Shown here one piece after another: positions 37,070 through 63,835 of a DNA stretch of 64,000 nucleotides. The stretch is from a virus. The stretch is taken from the IMG/VR virus record IMGVR_UViG_3300047471_000162, positions 48,904 to 112,903 of that record; one strand, written 5' to 3'. The notes below the pieces were generated by a model that was not told the DNA's origin, ran no database searches, and saw nothing but the letters and a program-made list of their open reading frames with translations. Made by a program: the position numbers and the translations under genes. Every line of letters begins with the position of its first letter. Position 1 is the first letter of the stretch.

Positions 37070-37246
37070 ATGAGTGTTCCAACTCCCTTGTCTTGTCCGG
37101 GATCGTCAATGGCAGACCCTCACAAGTACAATCTCGTTCCAGGCAAGGGTGATGAGTTTGTATGTGACCGTTGTAAGCGTACTGTTAAATACGATAGCGT
37201 GTCACGAAGCTTTAAGGTTATCTATTCTGGAATGACGCCAAAGTAG
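37070..37246 (+). CDS. Small hypothetical protein
   Basis: AGGAGG SD; 58 aa. Confidence 0.55.
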   Translation: MSVPTPLSCPGSSMADPHKYNLVPGKGDEFVCDRCKRTVKYDSVSRSFKVIYSGMTPK

Positions 37247-37310
37247 TTGCTTGTATCACCATCCTCTAGTAGGATGCTGGTACTGGTCACTACTACCAAG
37301 GAGGCTATAA
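37244..37310 (+). repeat. Intergenic hairpin element (GC-UU-stem-UG family)
   Basis: gc TT gtatcaccatcct-ctagt-aggatgctggtac TG gt, then SD. Confidence 0.5.
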
Positions 37311-53220: not shown

Positions 53221-53610
53221 ATGCCTGCCTACGGTGAATGTGGCATTTACAACGAGAAGTGCCGCAATAAGACGTGCGATCACGTTACCAATCCGAACCG
53301 CAAGGTTCCGACTCTGGATTACGTGATGGATATCAAAGCGGCGAATGGTGTGCCGTTCCGAGTGGTGTACGGTGTGCGTAACGGACTGAGTGGGAAGCCG
53401 CTCACGACCTATCCTGTCGTGGCGTTCTACGACCGACGGTCTCAGCACACGGCATATGGCCAATTCGTCTCAGACTACCGGGTTGATGACTTGATGTGGC
53501 ACCCGTACTATGGTCTTAACCTTGATGGTGGGGTGGGTGCTTGGACGGTTGACATCAATAACATGGTGGTCATTATGGATTGGCTGGGAAAGCTGATCAA
53601 TCCTTTCTAG
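53221..53610 (+). CDS. Hypothetical protein
   Basis: V.FYD.R.....YGQFVS.Y....L......GL.LDGGV.AW motif. Confidence 0.75.
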   Translation: MPAYGECGIYNEKCRNKTCDHVTNPNRKVPTLDYVMDIKAANGVPFRVVYGVRNGLSGKPLTTYPVVAFYDRRSQHTAYGQFVSDYRVDDLMWHPYYGLNLDGGVGAWTVDINNMVVIMDWLGKLINPF

Positions 53611-53686
53611 TGAGTTTGCGCCATTCTAGTCATGTACTAGGGTGGTGCAAGTTTCCTAAGGTAGGAAGCCTGTCAGGAGGTACTAA
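53608..53686 (+). repeat. Intergenic double-hairpin element
   Basis: tgcgccattctagt-catgt-actagggtggtgca, then tttcct-aaggt-aggaag, then AGGAGG. Confidence 0.55.
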
Positions 53687-54223
53687 ATGTCCGAGACGTT
53701 CGAATACATGAATGTGTTTCTCACTGCCGAGAAGAACGGTAAGATCGTTACCCGGGAATTCGTAATTGGCGACAGCCATTCCCCCGATATTTTCCGCCGT
53801 GCTTTTCTCGGCTCATTGGATAATGGGTGGGAATTGGGTGCTGTTCACGTAACCACGAATGTCACGCAGGATATCATCATCAAGCCCCAAGAGGATTCGG
53901 CTATTCCAGAGCTGTTCGATGCTCTGGTGTCGAATAAGGGTGATACTTCTCTTATCATCGCAGTGTGCCATGCCCACGACATCACGGAAGAGGAATTCGG
54001 TAGTTACGTGGGCGGGCGGCGATACCAGGACCATTGCTATTACTCTGGTGATACTCGCGATGAGGCTGTAGAGTCTGCTGTAACATACGATGGTGATATC
54101 GAGCACCCCGAATCCGCTTACCCGGATATCGTGATTGATTGGGAGGAGACTGCGGAGCATATGCTCCGCGACGGCTATCAGATCATTGACGAAGGCTATC
54201 AGTGGTTTGTCTTCTCTGACTGA
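53687..54223 (+). CDS. Acidic hypothetical protein (C-terminus reminiscent of ArdA-type DNA mimics)
   Basis: Very acidic; IDWEETA..ML.D...I......FVF ending. Confidence 0.55.
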   Translation: MSETFEYMNVFLTAEKNGKIVTREFVIGDSHSPDIFRRAFLGSLDNGWELGAVHVTTNVTQDIIIKPQEDSAIPELFDALVSNKGDTSLIIAVCHAHDITEEEFGSYVGGRRYQDHCYYSGDTRDEAVESAVTYDGDIEHPESAYPDIVIDWEETAEHMLRDGYQIIDEGYQWFVFSD

Positions 54224-54308
54224 TTAGAGCGCTTGTATCATTCCCCTACGCAAGGGGAATGGTGCTGGTTAGCTAATCGGCTAATCTCTTGACTGAAAAG
54301 GAATACCC
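54221..54308 (+). repeat. Intergenic double-hairpin element
   Basis: gc TT gtatcattcccct-acgca-aggggaatggtgc TG gttagct-aatc-ggctaat. Confidence 0.6.
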
Positions 54309-55212: not shown

Positions 55213-55229
55213 ATTTAATTTCTCCTATA

Positions 55230-55292
55230 TAAATGCCTAATACCCTGTCTCTCCTGATTGTATCCCAGGAAAAACAGGGTATTAGGCATTTA
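55230..55292 (-). terminator. Long intergenic hairpin (terminator or processing site)
   Basis: aaatgcctaataccctg...cagggtattaggcattt. Confidence 0.6.
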
Positions 55293-55508
55293 TAGCGGAA
55301 TAGCTCTCGCGGTGGATATATCCAGTATATCTCCGTAAAATGTCAGGGAGCACAGTTCTGGAGTGAGTAGCTTTGAGATATTACATCTCGCCCAACTCTT
55401 TGCCTTACCTATGATTCTCTCATCTGTAAGCCCCTGGTATCCATTGGCAAGAATATGAGTGTCTGGGTATGCGCCCATACTCATATAGGTAATAACTACA
55501 CCACGCAT
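55290..55508 (-). CDS. Hypothetical protein
   Basis: ORF in the leftward operon. Confidence 0.55.
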   Translation of the reverse strand: MRGVVITYMSMGAYPDTHILANGYQGLTDERIIGKAKSWARCNISKLLTPELCSLTFYGDILDISTARAIPL

Positions 55509-55580
55509 GATAATCCCTACCTAGTAAGCCATAGAGACAGCCACCCGGTTAGAGTGGCTATCCCTAAAGCTCACCAGGGG

Positions 55581-56306
55581 CTAGAAACCAGTCTCAACAG
55601 CAGTTGCGGGAGCAACCGCATAGACAGGCACACTCGGGATCTCCACCATCGCGGGCGGGGCGTTCTCAGCCACCTTGCGCGCCACGTACTTAGTCCACCA
55701 ATCACGGGCAGTCTGCGTGAGGGACGCGTGAGCCATGTACCAGGCATTCTCAGAGACACCAGAATTCAGAGCCGCATCCGTCATGGCCGGGACGAAATCG
55801 GGCTCACTCAGAGCAAGCCCATTCTTCTCAATGTCCGACTCATACTCGGTTACTGCCATCACAGCGGGGGCACGCAGGGACTGAATCAGTGCGTTCATGT
55901 CATACTCTCCGATCACTCGCTCACCCTCATTGGCGTCGATCTCTCGGCGCTCCGTGGAATCCTCCGAGACAGACACGGTCACGTTTGCCCCGTCAGAGCC
56001 CACAACCGGGGTCGCAGCGGTCTGTACGGTGATGGCAGGCTTGGGGGTGCGGGAAGCCTTTACGCGGGGCTTGGGAGCCTCCATGGGCTCACCCGTCAGC
56101 CAAAGCTCTCCCCGATCCCCGTCGACAACGCGGGCATCCTGGTCATGGGTGTTCAGAAGCGTCATGACCACGGCAGCGGTAGAGTCCATCCGATCGGCCA
56201 CCTTATCCACCTTGACCGAATCGGCCCCACTCTCAGTCAGCATCTCGTCAATGGTCTCGACAACCATCTCAAAGGTGATAGCGGTAGCAGCAGTACGAGT
56301 AGCCAT
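55581..56306 (-). CDS. Acidic hypothetical protein
   Basis: GAAGG SD; upstream promoter TTGACA-18-TAGATA at about 56356-56385. Confidence 0.75.
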   Translation of the reverse strand: MATRTAATAITFEMVVETIDEMLTESGADSVKVDKVADRMDSTAAVVMTLLNTHDQDARVVDGDRGELWLTGEPMEAPKPRVKASRTPKPAITVQTAATPVVGSDGANVTVSVSEDSTERREIDANEGERVIGEYDMNALIQSLRAPAVMAVTEYESDIEKNGLALSEPDFVPAMTDAALNSGVSENAWYMAHASLTQTARDWWTKYVARKVAENAPPAMVEIPSVPVYAVAPATAVETGF

Positions 56307-56389
56307 TTTCTTGCCTTCCGTCTGGATTCCTTAGGACTAGGAACCTCACACCACCTATCTAAGCGTGTCAGATAGATGATGTCAAGCCA

Positions 56390-56593
56390 CTAGTTCTTCG
56401 TGATCTTGCCATCCTTGATGAACGAGCCAACAACCCACAGAATCGGCCAAAAGGCACCGACCAGAGAGCTTGTGATGAACGCGACACCCTTACTGCGTCC
56501 GTTCTTACGCTCCGAGCGATAGAACTTACCCGCCGCCCCCAGAGCGTCAGAAGCGTACATACCGAAGAGAGTGCCATAAAGGAACAGGTTCAT
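56390..56593 (-). CDS. Small membrane protein
   Basis: GAAAGG SD; FWP motif; promoter TTGACA-18-TAGATC upstream. Confidence 0.6.
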   Translation of the reverse strand: MNLFLYGTLFGMYASDALGAAGKFYRSERKNGRSKGVAFITSSLVGAFWPILWVVGSFIKDGKITKN

Positions 56594-56669
56594 GTCCATG
56601 CCTTTCGGTTGCGGCCCCATCTAGGAACCTGAGAGGATCTAAGCACGAGTCTCAGACCCTGTCAAGCCA

Positions 56670-56864
56670 CTAGCTAAGCCACCAGATCAACAATCCGATT
56701 CCCGCGAGAAAGATCAACGGGAACAGGGCGAAGATCAGGCAACAACCACGGGCGAGGAAGGTGGCCAGAGGACCCTCGTGTCCGAAACCATTTTCGAATG
56801 CACTTCCCATCCTGTACAGGAGGTTCGCATCCATGGTGCTTTTTTTGCGCATCCATTTCGGCAT
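56670..56864 (-). CDS. Small membrane protein
   Basis: GAAAGG SD; C-terminal TM; promoter TTGACT-18-TAGGTT upstream. Confidence 0.6.
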   Translation of the reverse strand: MPKWMRKKSTMDANLLYRMGSAFENGFGHEGPLATFLARGCCLIFALFPLIFLAGIGLLIWWLS

Positions 56865-57559: not shown

Positions 57560-57638
57560 TGTGCTCCCTCTCTGTTCGGTGTGGCTCTAGCCTGCCATCC
57601 CAGCCTAAGGAAGTCAAGCCTTAGACCAGAAAAGCTCT

Positions 57639-57914
57639 CTAGCGACAGAACATACAGAGAAAGATCAACCCTAGTTCACACGGTCCATCGAATGCATTCG
57701 AGTGATCTTCAACCAGGCGCGTCAAACCTTCCATGTAATTACCACAGGAGTCACACCTACCCGGACCCTTTGTCCCGTGCATCTCACGAATATTGATACG
57801 CCCCTTGAGCCAGCGTGCGTCTTCTTCCATGATCACACCGGTGTCACAGTCACCAGTGATACACATGAGATCGAATTCGATGCTCTCAAGTTCTGCAATC
57901 GACCACTTACGCAT
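57639..57914 (-). CDS. Cys-rich hypothetical protein
   Basis: GAGG SD; CDSCG and CMFC. Confidence 0.55.
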   Translation of the reverse strand: MRKWSIAELESIEFDLMCITGDCDTGVIMEEDARWLKGRINIREMHGTKGPGRCDSCGNYMEGLTRLVEDHSNAFDGPCELGLIFLCMFCR

Positions 57915-58476: not shown

Positions 58477-58563
58477 ATAATACCTCCCTGATTGATTCAG
58501 TAAGTCACAGGGACTATAACCCGTTAGAGCTACGTGATTCCCTGTAACAAGCTCAACCTATCA
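58477..58563 (-). repeat. Intergenic hairpin element
   Basis: gagc TT gttacaggga...tccctgtgac TT actgaatc, then GGAGG. Confidence 0.6.
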
Positions 58564-58953
58564 GCTCTGAGCGTCGCTGTCCATCATCTGGCGGGCGAAC
58601 GTGGAAAGCCCGTTGATAGCCTGTGCAAGTTCCTGCCGTGCCTCACGACGGATCCGACCGCTTGCCTTAGTGGCAGCCTTACGCGAGCTTGCAGCGCTCA
58701 CACGCTCACCGTTGGGCGCCAGGATAGCGAACGACTCAGGCACCCCAATGCACTGAAGAAAGTAGAGGTCATTGGAGCGGATTCCCTGTGCCTTCAGAGC
58801 CCGAATCAGGCCGAGACGGGATTCCGTCTCCATCACAATCGGCATGCCGTGCAGACGCGTCTCACGGAGCGTGTGAGAGCAACCGGCAGCGTGGATACGG
58901 ATACTCTCATCGGACTTGACGAAAGCGGCCAGTGAAACACGCGAGTTCGACAT
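58561..58953 (-). CDS. Hypothetical protein
   Basis: GAAAGG SD; IHAAGC motif. Confidence 0.7.
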   Translation of the reverse strand: MSNSRVSLAAFVKSDESIRIHAAGCSHTLRETRLHGMPIVMETESRLGLIRALKAQGIRSNDLYFLQCIGVPESFAILAPNGERVSAASSRKAATKASGRIRREARQELAQAINGLSTFARQMMDSDAQS

Positions 58954-59041
58954 TTGAAATGCCTTTCATAGTCTGAATTACCCTTTGTAATTCAGCCATA
59001 ACCACTCATACATTTCTGTATGAATGATTAAAGCTTAATTA
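58954..59041 (-). repeat. Intergenic double-hairpin element
   Basis: TAAttaagc TT taatcattcatac-loop-gtatgagtggtta TG gctgaatt-N-aattcag, then SD. Confidence 0.75.
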
Positions 59042-59401
59042 CAGATCATCCGCGAAATAGTCGATAATATCCGCGATCTGGTCGAAAGTCAGGTGAAAGA
59101 GGTCATTATCCGTACTGAGAGCGGACTCATAGTTTTCGTCAATGCCATAATCTCCGTGACTGCTGCTCATTCCCGCCCACAGACGAATAGTGGAAGGAAG
59201 CGAGCCGTAATTGCCGTCGAAAAGCGTGTCATTATCCTCGTCCTGAACGATATCGATCTGAAGTCCTTCACGCTTGGCTACCATCCCGAGCACTCCAAGA
59301 CAGCAATACTGACCACTACAATCCTGCAATGCGCCACGCCCCTGGTAAAACTCACCACTACGGAGAGCAGTGGTCCAGAGCTTAGCCTTTGCACGGTCCA
59401 T
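59039..59401 (-). CDS. CCLGVL-family phage protein, paralog 3
   Basis: W..ALRSGEF.QG...CCLGVL...WAGM...ND...TFDQIAD.I. Confidence 0.8.
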   Translation of the reverse strand: MDRAKAKLWTTALRSGEFYQGRGALQDCSGQYCCLGVLGMVAKREGLQIDIVQDEDNDTLFDGNYGSLPSTIRLWAGMSSSHGDYGIDENYESALSTDNDLFHLTFDQIADIIDYFADDL

Positions 59402-59505
59402 GGTGAAGCCTTTCGTTAGCCGAATTCCTATAATTCGGTCAGTAAGCTATTCATCCTATATTCCGTGAGAAATACGTGGTGATGAATAGCAAGCTGATCT
59501 AATTA
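59402..59505 (-). repeat. Intergenic double-hairpin element
   Basis: tcagc TT gctattcatc...gatgaatagc TT actga ccgaatt-atagg-aattcgg, then SD. Confidence 0.75.
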
Positions 59506-59865
59506 CAGCTCAGAAACCCGCGCGTCGATCACGTCAGCAATCTGCTCGAAGGTATAGCTGTCGACGTCGTTGTGCCCTACGAGCGAGCACTCCTCTTCGC
59601 GCTTCTGATTGAAGTAGTAGCCGTCACCCGAATGCATTCCCGCCCAGATAACTACCTCATCGGGCAGAATACCGCGCTTGTTCCCATAGAAGACCGTGCC
59701 ACCGGAGTTCACTGTACGGATGGTGACTCCTGACTCGGCAGCAAGCGCGCAGAGAACCCCGAGACAGCAATTCCTGCCATCGGCAGTCTCAAGCATTCGC
59801 ACGCCCTGCTCGAATTCGCCACTCCGAAGCGCAGCGGTCCAGAGGTCAGCCTTATCCTTGTGCAT
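59503..59865 (-). CDS. CCLGVL-family phage protein, paralog 2
   Basis: W.AALRSGEFEQG...CCLGVL...WAGM...ND...TFEQIAD.I. Confidence 0.8.
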   Translation of the reverse strand: MHKDKADLWTAALRSGEFEQGVRMLETADGRNCCLGVLCALAAESGVTIRTVNSGGTVFYGNKRGILPDEVVIWAGMHSGDGYYFNQKREEECSLVGHNDVDSYTFEQIADVIDARVSEL

Positions 59866-59947
59866 GCTACTCCCTCATTTACGCTGAATTCCGTTAATTC
59901 AGCCATAACCATTCCCGTACGAGACGGGAATGGTTAAAGCTCAATTA
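59866..59947 (-). repeat. Intergenic double-hairpin element
   Basis: TAAttgagc TT taaccattcccgt-ctcgt-acgggaatggtta TG gctgaatt-aacgg-aattcagc, then SD. Confidence 0.75.
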
Positions 59948-60340
59948 CAGGGTTTCGTAGTTCTCACGGATATATGCAGCGATTTGGGGGAAAGAAACAC
60001 CACCATCATTAGCCGTGGTCAGCCCGTCCCAACCGCCAAACTTGGCGCTCTCTGCGAATTCACCCGTAAGGGTTCGCATGCCCGCCCAAGCCATGGTGTT
60101 GATGGTCAGAACACCCGAGCTCTCAGAGGGGTAATCATTCTCACCACTCTGCACGTCCACACACTTAACGGCATCTGCATAGCTAAGCGGAATCCAGACA
60201 GCAATTCCTGCTTCTACTGCCATCTCACTGAGAACACCCAGGCAACAGAACTTACCCTCTGCGAGCAGGTTACCCCTACCCTGCTCGTACTTGCCCGACT
60301 CCAGCCGATCGGCCAAATCCATAGCGATGTGCTTATGCAT
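59945..60340 (-). CDS. CCLGVL-family phage protein, paralog 1
   Basis: L.SGKYEQG...CCLGVL...WAGM...ND...FPQIA..I. Confidence 0.8.
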   Translation of the reverse strand: MHKHIAMDLADRLESGKYEQGRGNLLAEGKFCCLGVLSEMAVEAGIAVWIPLSYADAVKCVDVQSGENDYPSESSGVLTINTMAWAGMRTLTGEFAESAKFGGWDGLTTANDGGVSFPQIAAYIRENYETL

Positions 60341-60452
60341 TTCGTCTCCCTCATGCTGTGCTGAATTCCTATTAATTCAGCCAAACCGACTACCAGAATT
60401 ATGCTGCTAATCAATAGCGTATTTGCTGGTAATCAGTCAAGCGGAATTACTA
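60341..60452 (-). repeat. Intergenic double-hairpin element
   Basis: aattccgc TT gactgattaccag...ctggtagtcggtt TG gctgaatt-aatagg-aattcagc, then SD. Confidence 0.75.
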
Positions 60453-60894: not shown

Positions 60895-61057
60895 CCTGCT
60901 GCCTCTCGTTGTCTTGCTGGTGTAGATCCTTGCGTATTCGGTGGTGCTTGTCAACCCTGTGCATCCTGGCTTTCGTTGACCCTCATTCGGGTGTCTGACC
61001 AGTGCTGCGTTGTGCTGACAGGTAGGACACTAGTTGAGTCCATCGACCCTGTCAAGC

Positions 61058-61170
61058 CCTGCCCCGAAGCTCTGTAGAGCCCCTAGGAGGCTCTGTGAGA
61101 CGCACCCTAGGCAGTTGGTCTAGGAGGTATGGCAGAGGCCCCTAGAGATGGTTCTAGGGGCCTCTGTGAC
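61058..61170. other. Two-armed periodic intergenic segment (candidate gyrase site) including a hairpin
   Basis: gctctgtagagcccctaggaggctctgtgagacgc...gaggcccctagagatggttctaggggcctctg. Confidence 0.55.
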
Positions 61171-62208: not shown

Positions 62209-62280
62209 AGTATTTCCTCCATAATTGGCTGAGAATACCGAATTCAGATTTTGGCTGAATTCGATACACAAAGTCAATTA
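62209..62280 (-). repeat. Intergenic hairpin element (variant)
   Basis: TAAttgact...tatcgaattcag-ccaaaat-ctgaattcggta...agccaatt, then GGAGG. Confidence 0.55.
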
Positions 62281-62782: not shown

Positions 62783-63835
62783 CTAACCCCAGGGCAAGCC
62801 GCGCTTGTCCGCGCACGTGGGACCGTAGCCCACACCCTCACTGCGCGGGTCCGTGAGAGACAGGGTGCAGAACACGCAACGGTGGAACGTGTGGCCAAAC
62901 GTGGCCGCCTGCTCTGCTGTTGCGAGCATTTCAGGAGTGAGCCGCTTGATGACACCCTTGGGGGTGGCATCCCAATTCCAGCACTCGTCAGCCCAGACAA
63001 TCGCGTAAAGGTGTCCAGCCCGGGCACGGTGAATCTTGTAATACTCACCACCCATCACGCAAATGTCATCCTCCTTAAGGCCAAGCTTTTCGACCTTAGC
63101 GGATTCCGCCTTAACAACCTTGGCGCTTTCGGACCGCTTAGCAGCGAAAAGTGAATCAATGGCGGGCGAAATCTTTGCCCATGCCACTGTGTTGTGCCAT
63201 TCCTCCGTGTAAATGGTGAGAAGAATATCGGCGGCCTGCTGATTCAATTCCCCAATTTCGGAAATCAGTCGGTTAATCAAATCAGCTTGTGCCGGACTTG
63301 TTCCACACTTGGACTTACGGGCAGGCTTTCCCTTGCCCGCGATGGAGTGATCCCCCTTGCCACCCTTCATGATGGTAATGGAGGCCTTAGCATCGTCAGC
63401 TCGCAAATTCGGCTTATCCAGGATCAGCATGAGCGTACCAATCCAGCACGCGTCATTCTCGGTACCATCGGCGTAGTCCGAGAGCACATCACGGAACATT
63501 GACAGCTGAAATGCCTGATATTTCTGGGCAATCAGTTTCTGGGTGTCAACGTGCTTATGGTTGCTGATACAGCCCTGAATGAGGCTCCATGCGTCACCCT
63601 TGGGCATCTCCAACGACGTCACGCCAGAGATACGGCTACACGTCTTGCAGAGGGGAGCGTCACTGTCACCAGCACGCATTACGGACCGACCGCACAGAGT
63701 CGCGTCTCCACCCCGAGACAGGTGATTCACCTTCCCGCCGTAAAGCATCCCGCTGGTGAGTCCGTTGCTGGTGATCATGTTCCCGCTCCCTCTCGCCTGA
63801 CTGACAGGGACGACTCTAGAGGATTGAGCCGCCAC
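62783..63835 (-). CDS. DUF6011-domain protein
   Basis: C-terminal CVFC...LTDPRS..VGYGPTCA. Confidence 0.75.
   Translation of the reverse strand: MAAQSSRVVPVSQARGSGNMITSNGLTSGMLYGGKVNHLSRGGDATLCGRSVMRAGDSDAPLCKTCSRISGVTSLEMPKGDAWSLIQGCISNHKHVDTQKLIAQKYQAFQLSMFRDVLSDYADGTENDACWIGTLMLILDKPNLRADDAKASITIMKGGKGDHSIAGKGKPARKSKCGTSPAQADLINRLISEIGELNQQAADILLTIYTEEWHNTVAWAKISPAIDSLFAAKRSESAKVVKAESAKVEKLGLKEDDICVMGGEYYKIHRARAGHLYAIVWADECWNWDATPKGVIKRLTPEMLATAEQAATFGHTFHRCVFCTLSLTDPRSEGVGYGPTCADKRGLPWG

Follow-up and report, generated by a model that had tools for sequence, protein, structure and literature searches.

A conserved family of intercistronic RNA stem-loops in BRock-like Streptomyces phages

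Introduction

What are the intergenic spaces that recur with one layout between the small genes at the right end of a Streptomyces phage, and are they read as DNA or as RNA? The window analysed here (64 kb, to whose positions all coordinates refer unless another phage is named) is the last 64 kb of a 112,903 bp IMG/VR virus record (IMGVR_UViG_3300047471_000162) and represents the right end of the 113-kb genome of a BRock-like Streptomyces phage. Its large proteins were ~46–51% identical to those of the Streptomyces phages BRock, pSt2308, LuckySocke, Alone3 and GiJojo. Five minus-strand spaces of the window, which we have designated E1 to E5 (60452–60341, 59947–59866, 59505–59402, 59041–58954 and 58563–58477), were found to belong to a strand-specific family of RNA stem-loops that is conserved in BRock-like Streptomyces phages. 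The family itself, its anchoring at stop codons, its fixed non-Watson–Crick core with a hypervariable top and its overlap with promoter-like motifs are new.

Results

Anatomy of the five spaces

An initial annotation of this stretch had described one shared layout for the five spaces, and both the layout and its coordinates were borne out. Each of E1–E5 was found to run from a stop codon through a short arm ending GC, then UU and an inner stem of 10–14 bp, to a Shine–Dalgarno sequence (SD) and AUG. Folding revealed one long three-tier hairpin per space (hairpin 1) that started at or beside the stop codon, with energies of −31.3 to −36.3 kcal/mol and z values of −4.1 to −6.3; none of 200 dinucleotide shuffles (0/200) folded as well. 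The basal stem began at the first base of the stop codon in E2 and E5, and included or adjoined the stop codon in E1, E3 and E4. The middle tier of all five was a helix of 3–4 bp of the GCU/GGC type. Between this helix and the inner stem lay an internal tier. E1, E2 and E4 had a U.U mismatch there; in E3 and E5 it took the form of a 3x3 loop (CUU/UUA). The five long hairpins were located as follows.

60373..60452, minus strand: E1 hairpin 1; in the fold the UAG stop is followed 3 nt later by the stem UAAUUC/GAAUUA, and a GCU/GGC helix comes next, topped by a U.U mismatch, a 13-bp stem and, at the apex, a large insert.
59895..59947, minus strand: E2 hairpin 1; UAAUU/AAUUA including the UAA stop, AGCU/GGCU, a U.U mismatch and a 13-bp stem.
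59430..59505, minus strand: E3 hairpin 1; a stop-codon stem, CAG/CUG, the 3x3 loop CUU/UUA and a 10-bp stem, with an apical extension that is also present in E5.
58988..59041, minus strand: E4 hairpin 1; a 14-bp stem unlike that of E2, with two U.G pairs.
58493..58563, minus strand: E5, a single long hairpin from the UGA stop, with the 3x3 loop CUU/UUA and no second hairpin.

The bases of E2 and E4 were the same at 37 of 40 positions, although the genes that belong to them shared only 57% nucleotide identity. Pairs of elements with near-identical bases (E2 and E4, and the elements at 56672 and 56392 described below) carried wholly different, fully complementary inner stems. Additionally, the element types (E1, E2 and E4 as opposed to E3 and E5) were unrelated to the paralogy of the genes, and simple tandem duplication is therefore no explanation of the similarity; together with the differing stems on near-identical bases, this ruled it out.

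A covarying family in related phages

LuckySocke, GiJojo and pSt2308 showed the same architecture in their homologous right-end module and in a divergent operon that includes an ArdA-like antirestriction gene. Where coordinates in these genomes are given, L113 denotes LuckySocke, L114 GiJojo, L115 pSt2308 and L239 BRock. In these relatives, a long hairpin directly behind the stop codon was present in nearly all of the 65–100 nt spaces; a short second hairpin often came next, and the SD after that. The 17 spaces from the window and 45 from the three relatives were combined into a set of 62, in which 50 had a z value below −3 and 51 folded better on the sense than on the antisense strand (mean −34.8 compared to −27.2 kcal/mol; Wilcoxon p = 4e-9).

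The inner stems had been said to covary, differing in sequence between copies and still pairing. An alignment of 10 members with the core GCUUUA...UAUGG, taken from four phages and two operons and laid on the three-tier structure, confirmed this. Paired cells amounted to 92.2% compared to 71.4% in shuffles, 14 of the 22 pairs had changed on both sides, and the covariation score was 0.521 compared to 0.160, a value that none of 500 shuffles (0/500) reached. Sliding the partner strand by 1–3 columns reduced pairing to 34–49%.

The covariance model that the initial annotation had called for was built as R1, which has 21 pairs. It revealed 23 sense-strand members in five phages (the window phage, LuckySocke, GiJojo, pSt2308 and BRock, the last with five), and its best matches scored ~70 bits on the sense strand and ~20 bits on the antisense strand. 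Across the 23 members, 92% of the cells were paired and compensatory changes were present at 18 of the 21 pairs. Two positions were near-invariant, each of them a U.G in 21/23 members, and where the short helix meets the top stem one column was a fixed mismatch (U.U). The matches had UAG at the start and CUAG at the end in 18/23 members, and window members with a UAA stop ended in UUA; for most annotated members, the UAG start of the match was the annotated stop codon. E2 and E4 scored 60.7 and 58.7 bits respectively, and E1, which was outside the training set, was matched on the minus strand between 60370 and 60448 with 39.2 bits.

The family can be described as an imperfect three-tier helix of 22–30 bp whose start coincides with the upstream stop codon or lies at most a few bases from it. 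Its basal stem often contains the stop codon (UAG...CUA or UAA...UUA), its middle tier is a 3–4-bp GCU/GGC helix with near-invariant U.G, and its top tier is a U.U mismatch or 3x3 loop followed by a variable stem of 10–16 bp. The conserved wobble pairs and the strand specificity mean that the element is read as RNA, and near-invariant U.G pairs together with a fixed U.U mismatch are intelligible at that level only. Elements of LuckySocke showed 70–83% identity to those of GiJojo or pSt2308, compared to 45–65% for the flanking genes (47–61% at third codon positions); the elements exceed the neighbouring genes in conservation, which speaks for purifying selection on these non-coding stretches. 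The spread of the family across the clade and the stop codon within the model had been missed by the initial annotation, as had a host-type −35 motif in ~40% of the spaces.

One member lies in the DNA-replication module of LuckySocke (L235:1505–1571, plus strand, which corresponds to LuckySocke 69704–69770), where it starts at the stop codon of gene 126 and is beside a gene annotated as 'host nuclease inhibitor'. This member was outside the R1 training set. Both GiJojo and pSt2308 gave matching R1 hits, and the family therefore extends beyond the end module. The ArdA-like gene was directly followed by a top-scoring member in all three cultured relatives (L113:11950–12009, L114:11013–11076 and L115:11548–11611, all on the minus strand). 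The stem downstream of this member encloses the next SD and covaries, with GGCUG/CAGCC replaced by GGAUG/CAUCC.

The initial annotation had not recognised the motif as a named RNA family, and the 64-kb window had no Rfam match at the gathering score. At E ≤ 1 there were only generic, sub-threshold miRNA-precursor matches, on the 30-bp hairpin at 55224–55298. Pattern scans of IMG/VR with the 16-base palindrome of the second hairpin and with a 15-mer of the E2/E4 base gave single, chance-level matches only, and a description of the family was not found in the literature on Streptomyces phages. CTAG was not enriched. A role for the stem arms as antisense or miRNA-like guides was rejected, as 10-mer matches elsewhere in the genome were at chance level.

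Further members in the window

A hairpin census and the folding of every minus-strand space revealed at least 14 elements in the window, each on the strand of the gene that it follows. Their main helix domain had 18–33 pairs, helix stabilities were −20 to −45 kcal/mol, and the best fold began at the first base of the stop codon in 9/14. All four of the related elements previously noticed, at 37244, 53608, 54221 and 62209, exist; those at 57641, 56672, 56392, 55583 and 55292 were absent from the initial annotation.

57584..57641, minus strand: member starting at a UAG stop, with CUUGACUU in the loop; R1 51.3 bits.
56621..56672, minus strand: member with the stop UAG paired to CUA and an embedded TTGACA-N18-TAGATC.
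56337..56392, minus strand: member with an embedded TTGACA-N18-TAGATA, followed by a second hairpin; its first 13 and last 9 bases are shared with the member at 56672.
55514..55583, minus strand: member with the core GAGCUUUA...UAUGGCU and a 15-bp stem; R1 55.7 bits.
55230..55292, minus strand: near-perfect hairpin of 28–30 bp, longer than any other in the genome; it starts at the UAA stop and ends 6 nt short of the following SD.
62222..62280, minus strand: member with apparent homologues at L113:4522 (LuckySocke), L114:4545 (GiJojo) and L115:4551 (pSt2308), among which there are compensatory changes.
54221..54279, plus strand: member after a plus-strand gene; R1 42.4 bits (match 54225–54279), outside the training set.
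53608..53657, plus strand: hairpin located at a UAG stop, with a second hairpin, a short one, after it.
37244..37292, plus strand: replication-region member of looser fit (GCUUGUAUC...GGUACUGG), located at a UAG stop; R1 gave no match to it.

Directly upstream of the element at 62280, two tiny open frames were found on the minus strand between 62278 and 62450; they would encode hydrophobic peptides of 24 aa and 32 aa and are joined by an overlapping UAAUG.

The second hairpin and the competing folds

The initial annotation had placed a palindromic second hairpin (hairpin 2) after the long one in most of the five spaces. It was exact in E1 and E2, present as variants in E3 and E4, and absent from E5. 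The 113-kb genome contained the exact palindrome, GCUGAAUU-N5/6-AAUUCAGC, at two sites only, E1 and E2, with 0 expected.

60360..60381, minus strand: E1 hairpin 2, GCUGAAUU-N6-AAUUCAGC, with a 5′ arm that is the 3′ strand of hairpin 1.
59883..59903, minus strand: E2 hairpin 2, GCUGAAUU-N5-AAUUCAGC.
59420..59438, minus strand: E3 hairpin 2, CCGAAUU-N5-AAUUCGG, a variant in which the changes from the E1/E2 hairpin are compensated.
58973..58995, minus strand: E4 hairpin 2, the variant CUGAAUUAC-N5-GUAAUUCAG.

The two folds are mutually exclusive in E1–E4 because the 5′ arm of hairpin 2 is the 3′ strand of the long hairpin. Fold A (the stop-codon stem) and fold B (hairpin 2) had energies of −36.3 and −33.4 kcal/mol in E1, −36.6 and −33.2 in E2, −32.5 and −32.9 in E3, and −31.3 and −30.4 in E4. 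The gap between them was thus 0.4–3.4 kcal/mol; in E3 the two were level, and in the other three the long hairpin was the more stable. The exclusive folds proposed earlier therefore held as alternative pairings in E1–E4, but only E3 and E4 were truly bistable, and base-pair probabilities showed bistability in 5/62 of the related spaces. The SD was free in both folds of E1–E4.

Terminator and promoter signals

A U-tract, scored as at least 4 U within the first 8 nt past the main hairpin, was present in 0/62 spaces, and this lack of a U-rich tract excluded an intrinsic (rho-independent) terminator. Elsewhere, the genome of the window phage does have hairpins flanked by A-tracts and U-tracts. Behaviour as plain terminators, which the initial annotation had set against its own proposal, was accordingly not what the sense strands showed, 62/62 being without the tract. 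A scan with E. coli consensus promoters and terminators revealed no enrichment of either and none at the elements. E2–E5 encoded neither UUGAC nor an acceptable −35/−10 pair, and E1 had TTGACT 100 nt from the ATG. As E2–E5 lack a recognisable promoter, their genes are probably co-transcribed and dependent on read-through, and the hairpins therefore cannot be efficient terminators. A recombinant mycobacterial RNA polymerase did not terminate without a U-tract (PMC3993855), and terminators without poly-U are attributed to phage phiC31 (Ingham et al. 1995, as cited in PMC3993855). Term-seq of S. clavuligerus revealed 353 of 535 structured 3′ ends to be hairpins without a U-tract, with intermediate read-through (PMC8269248).

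A host-type −35 motif was found in part of the family. In the 62 spaces, UUGAC had 29 occurrences on the sense and 8 on the antisense strand, compared to 4.8 ± 2.1 in shuffles, and 25/62 spaces (~40%) carried it. Twenty of the 29 lay 58–79 nt before the next ATG, whether the motif was at the hairpin base or in the loop. The pattern TTG[AC][AC][AT]-N17-18-TAG[AG][TG]N was present in 14/62 spaces compared to 0.12 in shuffles, including those at 56392 and 56672; these 14 had TTGACA or TTGCAT, N17–18 and then TAGGTT, TAGATG or a similar hexamer, and their predicted +1 was the first base of hairpin 2. Strict TTGACA-like/TANNNT pairs were not enriched (4/62 compared to 2.4 in shuffles), and in most of the −10-like hexamers position 6 was not a T. 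It may well be that the family is composite, with the RNA hairpin in all members and an overlapping promoter in some only.

Many members had YUUGAC(A/U) in the loop and a second motif ~24 nt downstream (TTGACT, TTGGCT or TTAGCT, preceded by TGR), a spacing that is unlike that of a normal −35/−10 pair. Examples were L113:7748–7845, L113:8296–8395, L114:7057–7146, L115:7200–7288, L239 and 57600–57625 of the window.

The end module and its genes

The GC content was ~45% up to 52 kb of the window and rose to 51–55% between 52 and 64 kb, a module of small genes that are mostly on the minus strand. The end-module genes tested were orphans in Pfam and PHROGs, except for one DUF6011 protein (62783–63835) and three tandem phrog_18067 paralogs, between which E2 and E3 lie.

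59945–60340, minus strand: first phrog_18067 paralog.
59503–59865, minus strand: second phrog_18067 paralog.
59039–59401, minus strand: third phrog_18067 paralog.
61027–61055, minus strand: promoter-like TTGACA-N17-TAGTGT of host type, a sequence motif only.

The paralogs showed 35–46% amino acid and 57–62% nucleotide identity among themselves. Relatives of phrog_18067 at 33–38% amino acid identity were found in cyanophages and in Alteromonas, Ralstonia and Tunturiibacter phages, and none in the closest Streptomyces phages; the element context was absent from the unrelated phages that carry these homologues. Megablast against phage records gave no match to the region or to the 12-kb module, and probing IMG/VR with neighbouring genes revealed no close relatives.

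To judge from the motif at 61027–61055, the transcript that includes E1–E5 probably starts there. Two GC-rich palindromes were present upstream of this site, at 61132–61167 (16 bp, folding on both strands) and at 61073–61097. On the minus strand, 61027–61170 looks like an operon boundary upstream of E1–E5.

Discussion

A proposed processing role for the elements

The reading that we favour, with a probability of about 0.45, is that the elements act as RNase III-type cut-and-protect punctuation of a polycistronic early mRNA. A double-strand-specific endonuclease, most plausibly the host RNase III, would cut at the mismatch or internal-loop tier. The upstream message would retain a 3′ hairpin that stalls 3′–5′ exonucleases, and in E1–E4 the freed 3′ strand would re-pair with the downstream arm to place hairpin 2 at the 5′ end of the next message. 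Every step beyond RNA folding, namely the cleavage, the enzyme and any effect on mRNA stability or dosage, is one that we infer. Of the processing switch put forward in the initial annotation, what stood was an element that acts at the RNA level, is strand-specific, has no U-tract and forms RNase III-like helices; the near-isoenergetic switch was retained for E3 and E4 only.

Intercistronic processing hairpins in phage early operons have been known since T7 and SP82. Like the R0.3–R1.3 sites of T7 and the Bs-RNase III sites of SP82/SPO1, the elements are hairpins between early genes on the transcribed strand, with several related copies per genome. At both, a helix of about two turns is broken by internal mismatches or loops, features that are reactivity epitopes of bacterial RNase III, and cleavage at the known sites leaves protective 3′ hairpins (PMC1540722). 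The RNase III of S. coelicolor cuts on both sides of a [4/4] internal loop within the rpsO-pnp hairpin (PMC10126417). The two-turn, internally mismatched helices between cistrons on the transcribed strand thus fit RNase III substrates. Compared to the T7, SP82 and SPO1 sites, the elements have no sequence relation, an actinobacterial host and anchoring at a stop codon. They also have a conserved GCU/GGC-U.G-U.U core, a hypervariable top stem and a competing second hairpin.

The rpsO-pnp hairpin of the host genus, a substrate of RNase III (AbsB), was compared in five Streptomyces genomes. Its 22 pairs form tiers of 7, 5, 1, 3 and 6, with an internal loop and 1x1 mismatches separating them; one 3-bp helix (GGC/GCU) contains a G.U pair and is bordered by a C.U mismatch and an internal loop. 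Its base, ~19 nt per side, was identical in the five species, and the apical stem and loop varied. The phage elements resemble it in having ~22 bp in tiers, a short GC helix with G.U beside a pyrimidine.U mismatch, and a constant base with a variable apical stem. The host hairpin differs in being single-copy and autoregulatory rather than repeated at stop codons.

Several points count against the processing reading. R1 scored the host rpsO-pnp hairpin at <8 bits, which is no match; the likeness is architectural, with the GCU/GGC helix strand-swapped. An RNase III gene was not found in the phage genome, and we know of no defined sequence consensus for Streptomyces RNase III. The −35-like motif in ~40% of the spaces, in register with the next gene, means that part of the conserved sequence may be read as DNA. 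Finally, the 353/535 hairpins without a U-tract mark Streptomyces 3′ ends where no cleavage is known (PMC8269248).

Alternative readings

The main rival, though an unlikely one, is that the spaces are transcriptional cassettes similar to the PeSLs of T4-type phages, in which a stem-loop, an early promoter and an SD lie between small orphan genes and mediate their shuffling (PMC2839356, PMC4122927). Upstream transcription would be terminated or attenuated at hairpin 1 despite its lack of a U-tract, and a host-type promoter would lie in or beside it; hairpin 2 would be the 5′-terminal leader hairpin of a new monocistronic mRNA, and the ~80-bp repeats would double as recombination points that shuffle the small genes. 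As in PeSLs, composite units of ~80–100 bp fill the space from stop to start in a plastic region, each opening with a stem-loop that follows the upstream stop codon directly and closing, at its 3′ end, with the SD. The largely orphan genes of the module, and E2/E4 bases that are nearly the same despite diverged genes, are consistent with this reading. A promoter is suggested by the sense-strand enrichment of UUGAC, by its register with the next ATG and by the 14 motif pairs with a predicted +1 at the start of hairpin 2. In PeSLs, however, a host sigma-70-type early promoter is a constant part of the unit and was tested, whereas in the phage family the motif is limited to a subset, absent from E2–E5 and putative elsewhere; the TTGACT of E1 is far from its ATG, strict pairs are at shuffle level and the −10-like hexamers are mostly atypical. 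The phage stems, unlike PeSLs, have conserved wobbles and compensatory changes and no AT-rich or U-rich tract after them, and the U.G wobbles and strand asymmetry indicate function as RNA. The requirement of the mycobacterial polymerase for a U-tract (PMC3993855) also argues against termination at hairpin 1, and an efficient terminator in E2–E5 would silence the downstream paralogs.

Less likely again is a passive structure, in which the hairpins would be 3′ exonuclease barriers or I-shaped 3′-end elements that set the stability or dosage of the upstream cistron with no site-specific endonuclease, and the conserved core would serve folding or some binding protein. Stem-loops impede PNPase (PMC5872136) and the helices of the family are very stable. 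The I-shaped or 'HS-U-lack' hairpins at Streptomyces 3′ ends are likewise stable, lack a U-tract, lie directly after a gene and allow intermediate read-through (PMC8269248), and as they form the majority class in S. clavuligerus, a passive role at 3′ ends or in stability is conceivable. These host sites have no conserved core, whereas the phage elements are a family in both sequence and structure inside apparent operons. A passive role leaves the near-invariant U.G/U.U core in five phages, the three fixed tiers and the stop-codon anchoring unexplained.

We regard as improbable a device actuated by the ribosome, in which a terminating ribosome would melt the basal tiers, so that processing or translation of the next gene depends on translation of the previous one. 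The coupling could be shunt-like, to the next SD across the hairpin base, or the 3′ strand could be toggled into hairpin 2. With the basal tiers opened, the helix might drop below the length that RNase III needs, and cutting, stability and re-initiation would be set gene by gene in such a translation-sensing device, which we consider doubtful. It is just as doubtful that the elements are a bacterial counterpart of ribosome shunting that places the ribosome beside the following SD. The basal stem does hold the stop codon, and the helix ends just before the next SD. The native stop codon was paired more than substituted ones (mean 0.40 compared to 0.26, Wilcoxon p = 2e-4), and the whole stop codon was paired in the best fold of 11/17 window spaces; in the three relatives, however, it was fully paired in 8/45 spaces, which gives 19/62 overall. 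The UAG...CUAG ends of 18/23 model matches and the UUA ends of UAA-stop members in the window point the same way as the native pairing, as do the small energy gap between folds A and B in E1–E4 and the covariation of hairpin 2 in relatives. Against a toggle are the bistability of only 5/62 spaces, an SD that is sequestered in neither fold of E1–E4, and a failure to find a downstream partner for the released arm.

That the elements act as DNA (operator palindromes, attC-like recombination sites or mobile palindromic repeats, with incidental RNA folding) is very improbable: the arms CTGAATT/AATTCAG recur in E1, E2, E4, window 62235–62267 and LuckySocke L113:6321, and the E2/E4 bases look homogenised, but half-site spacing varies from 4 to 9 bp, the E3 variant is compensated, stems are wholly different between copies, G.U pairs occur on the transcribed strand only, no tyrosine recombinase gene (PF00589) was found in the 113-kb genome and the palindrome had only single, chance-level matches in IMG/VR. 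Integron attC-like sites in particular were rejected on the absent PF00589 match and the wobble pairs on the transcribed strand.

Significance

For annotation, the elements would be a well-defined RNA family absent from Rfam, with at least 23 members in at least five Streptomyces phages, of which three are in culture on laboratory strains. The family would account for the regular 65–100-nt gaps in the early modules of BRock-like phages. They bear on the debate over whether actinobacterial hairpins that lack a U-tract are terminators or sites of processing and stability. The fixed core with a free top stem is a design for insulating cistrons in synthetic operons of Streptomyces. If the processing reading is true, the family would provide natural, sequence-diverse substrates with which to define what the Streptomyces RNase III (AbsB) recognises.

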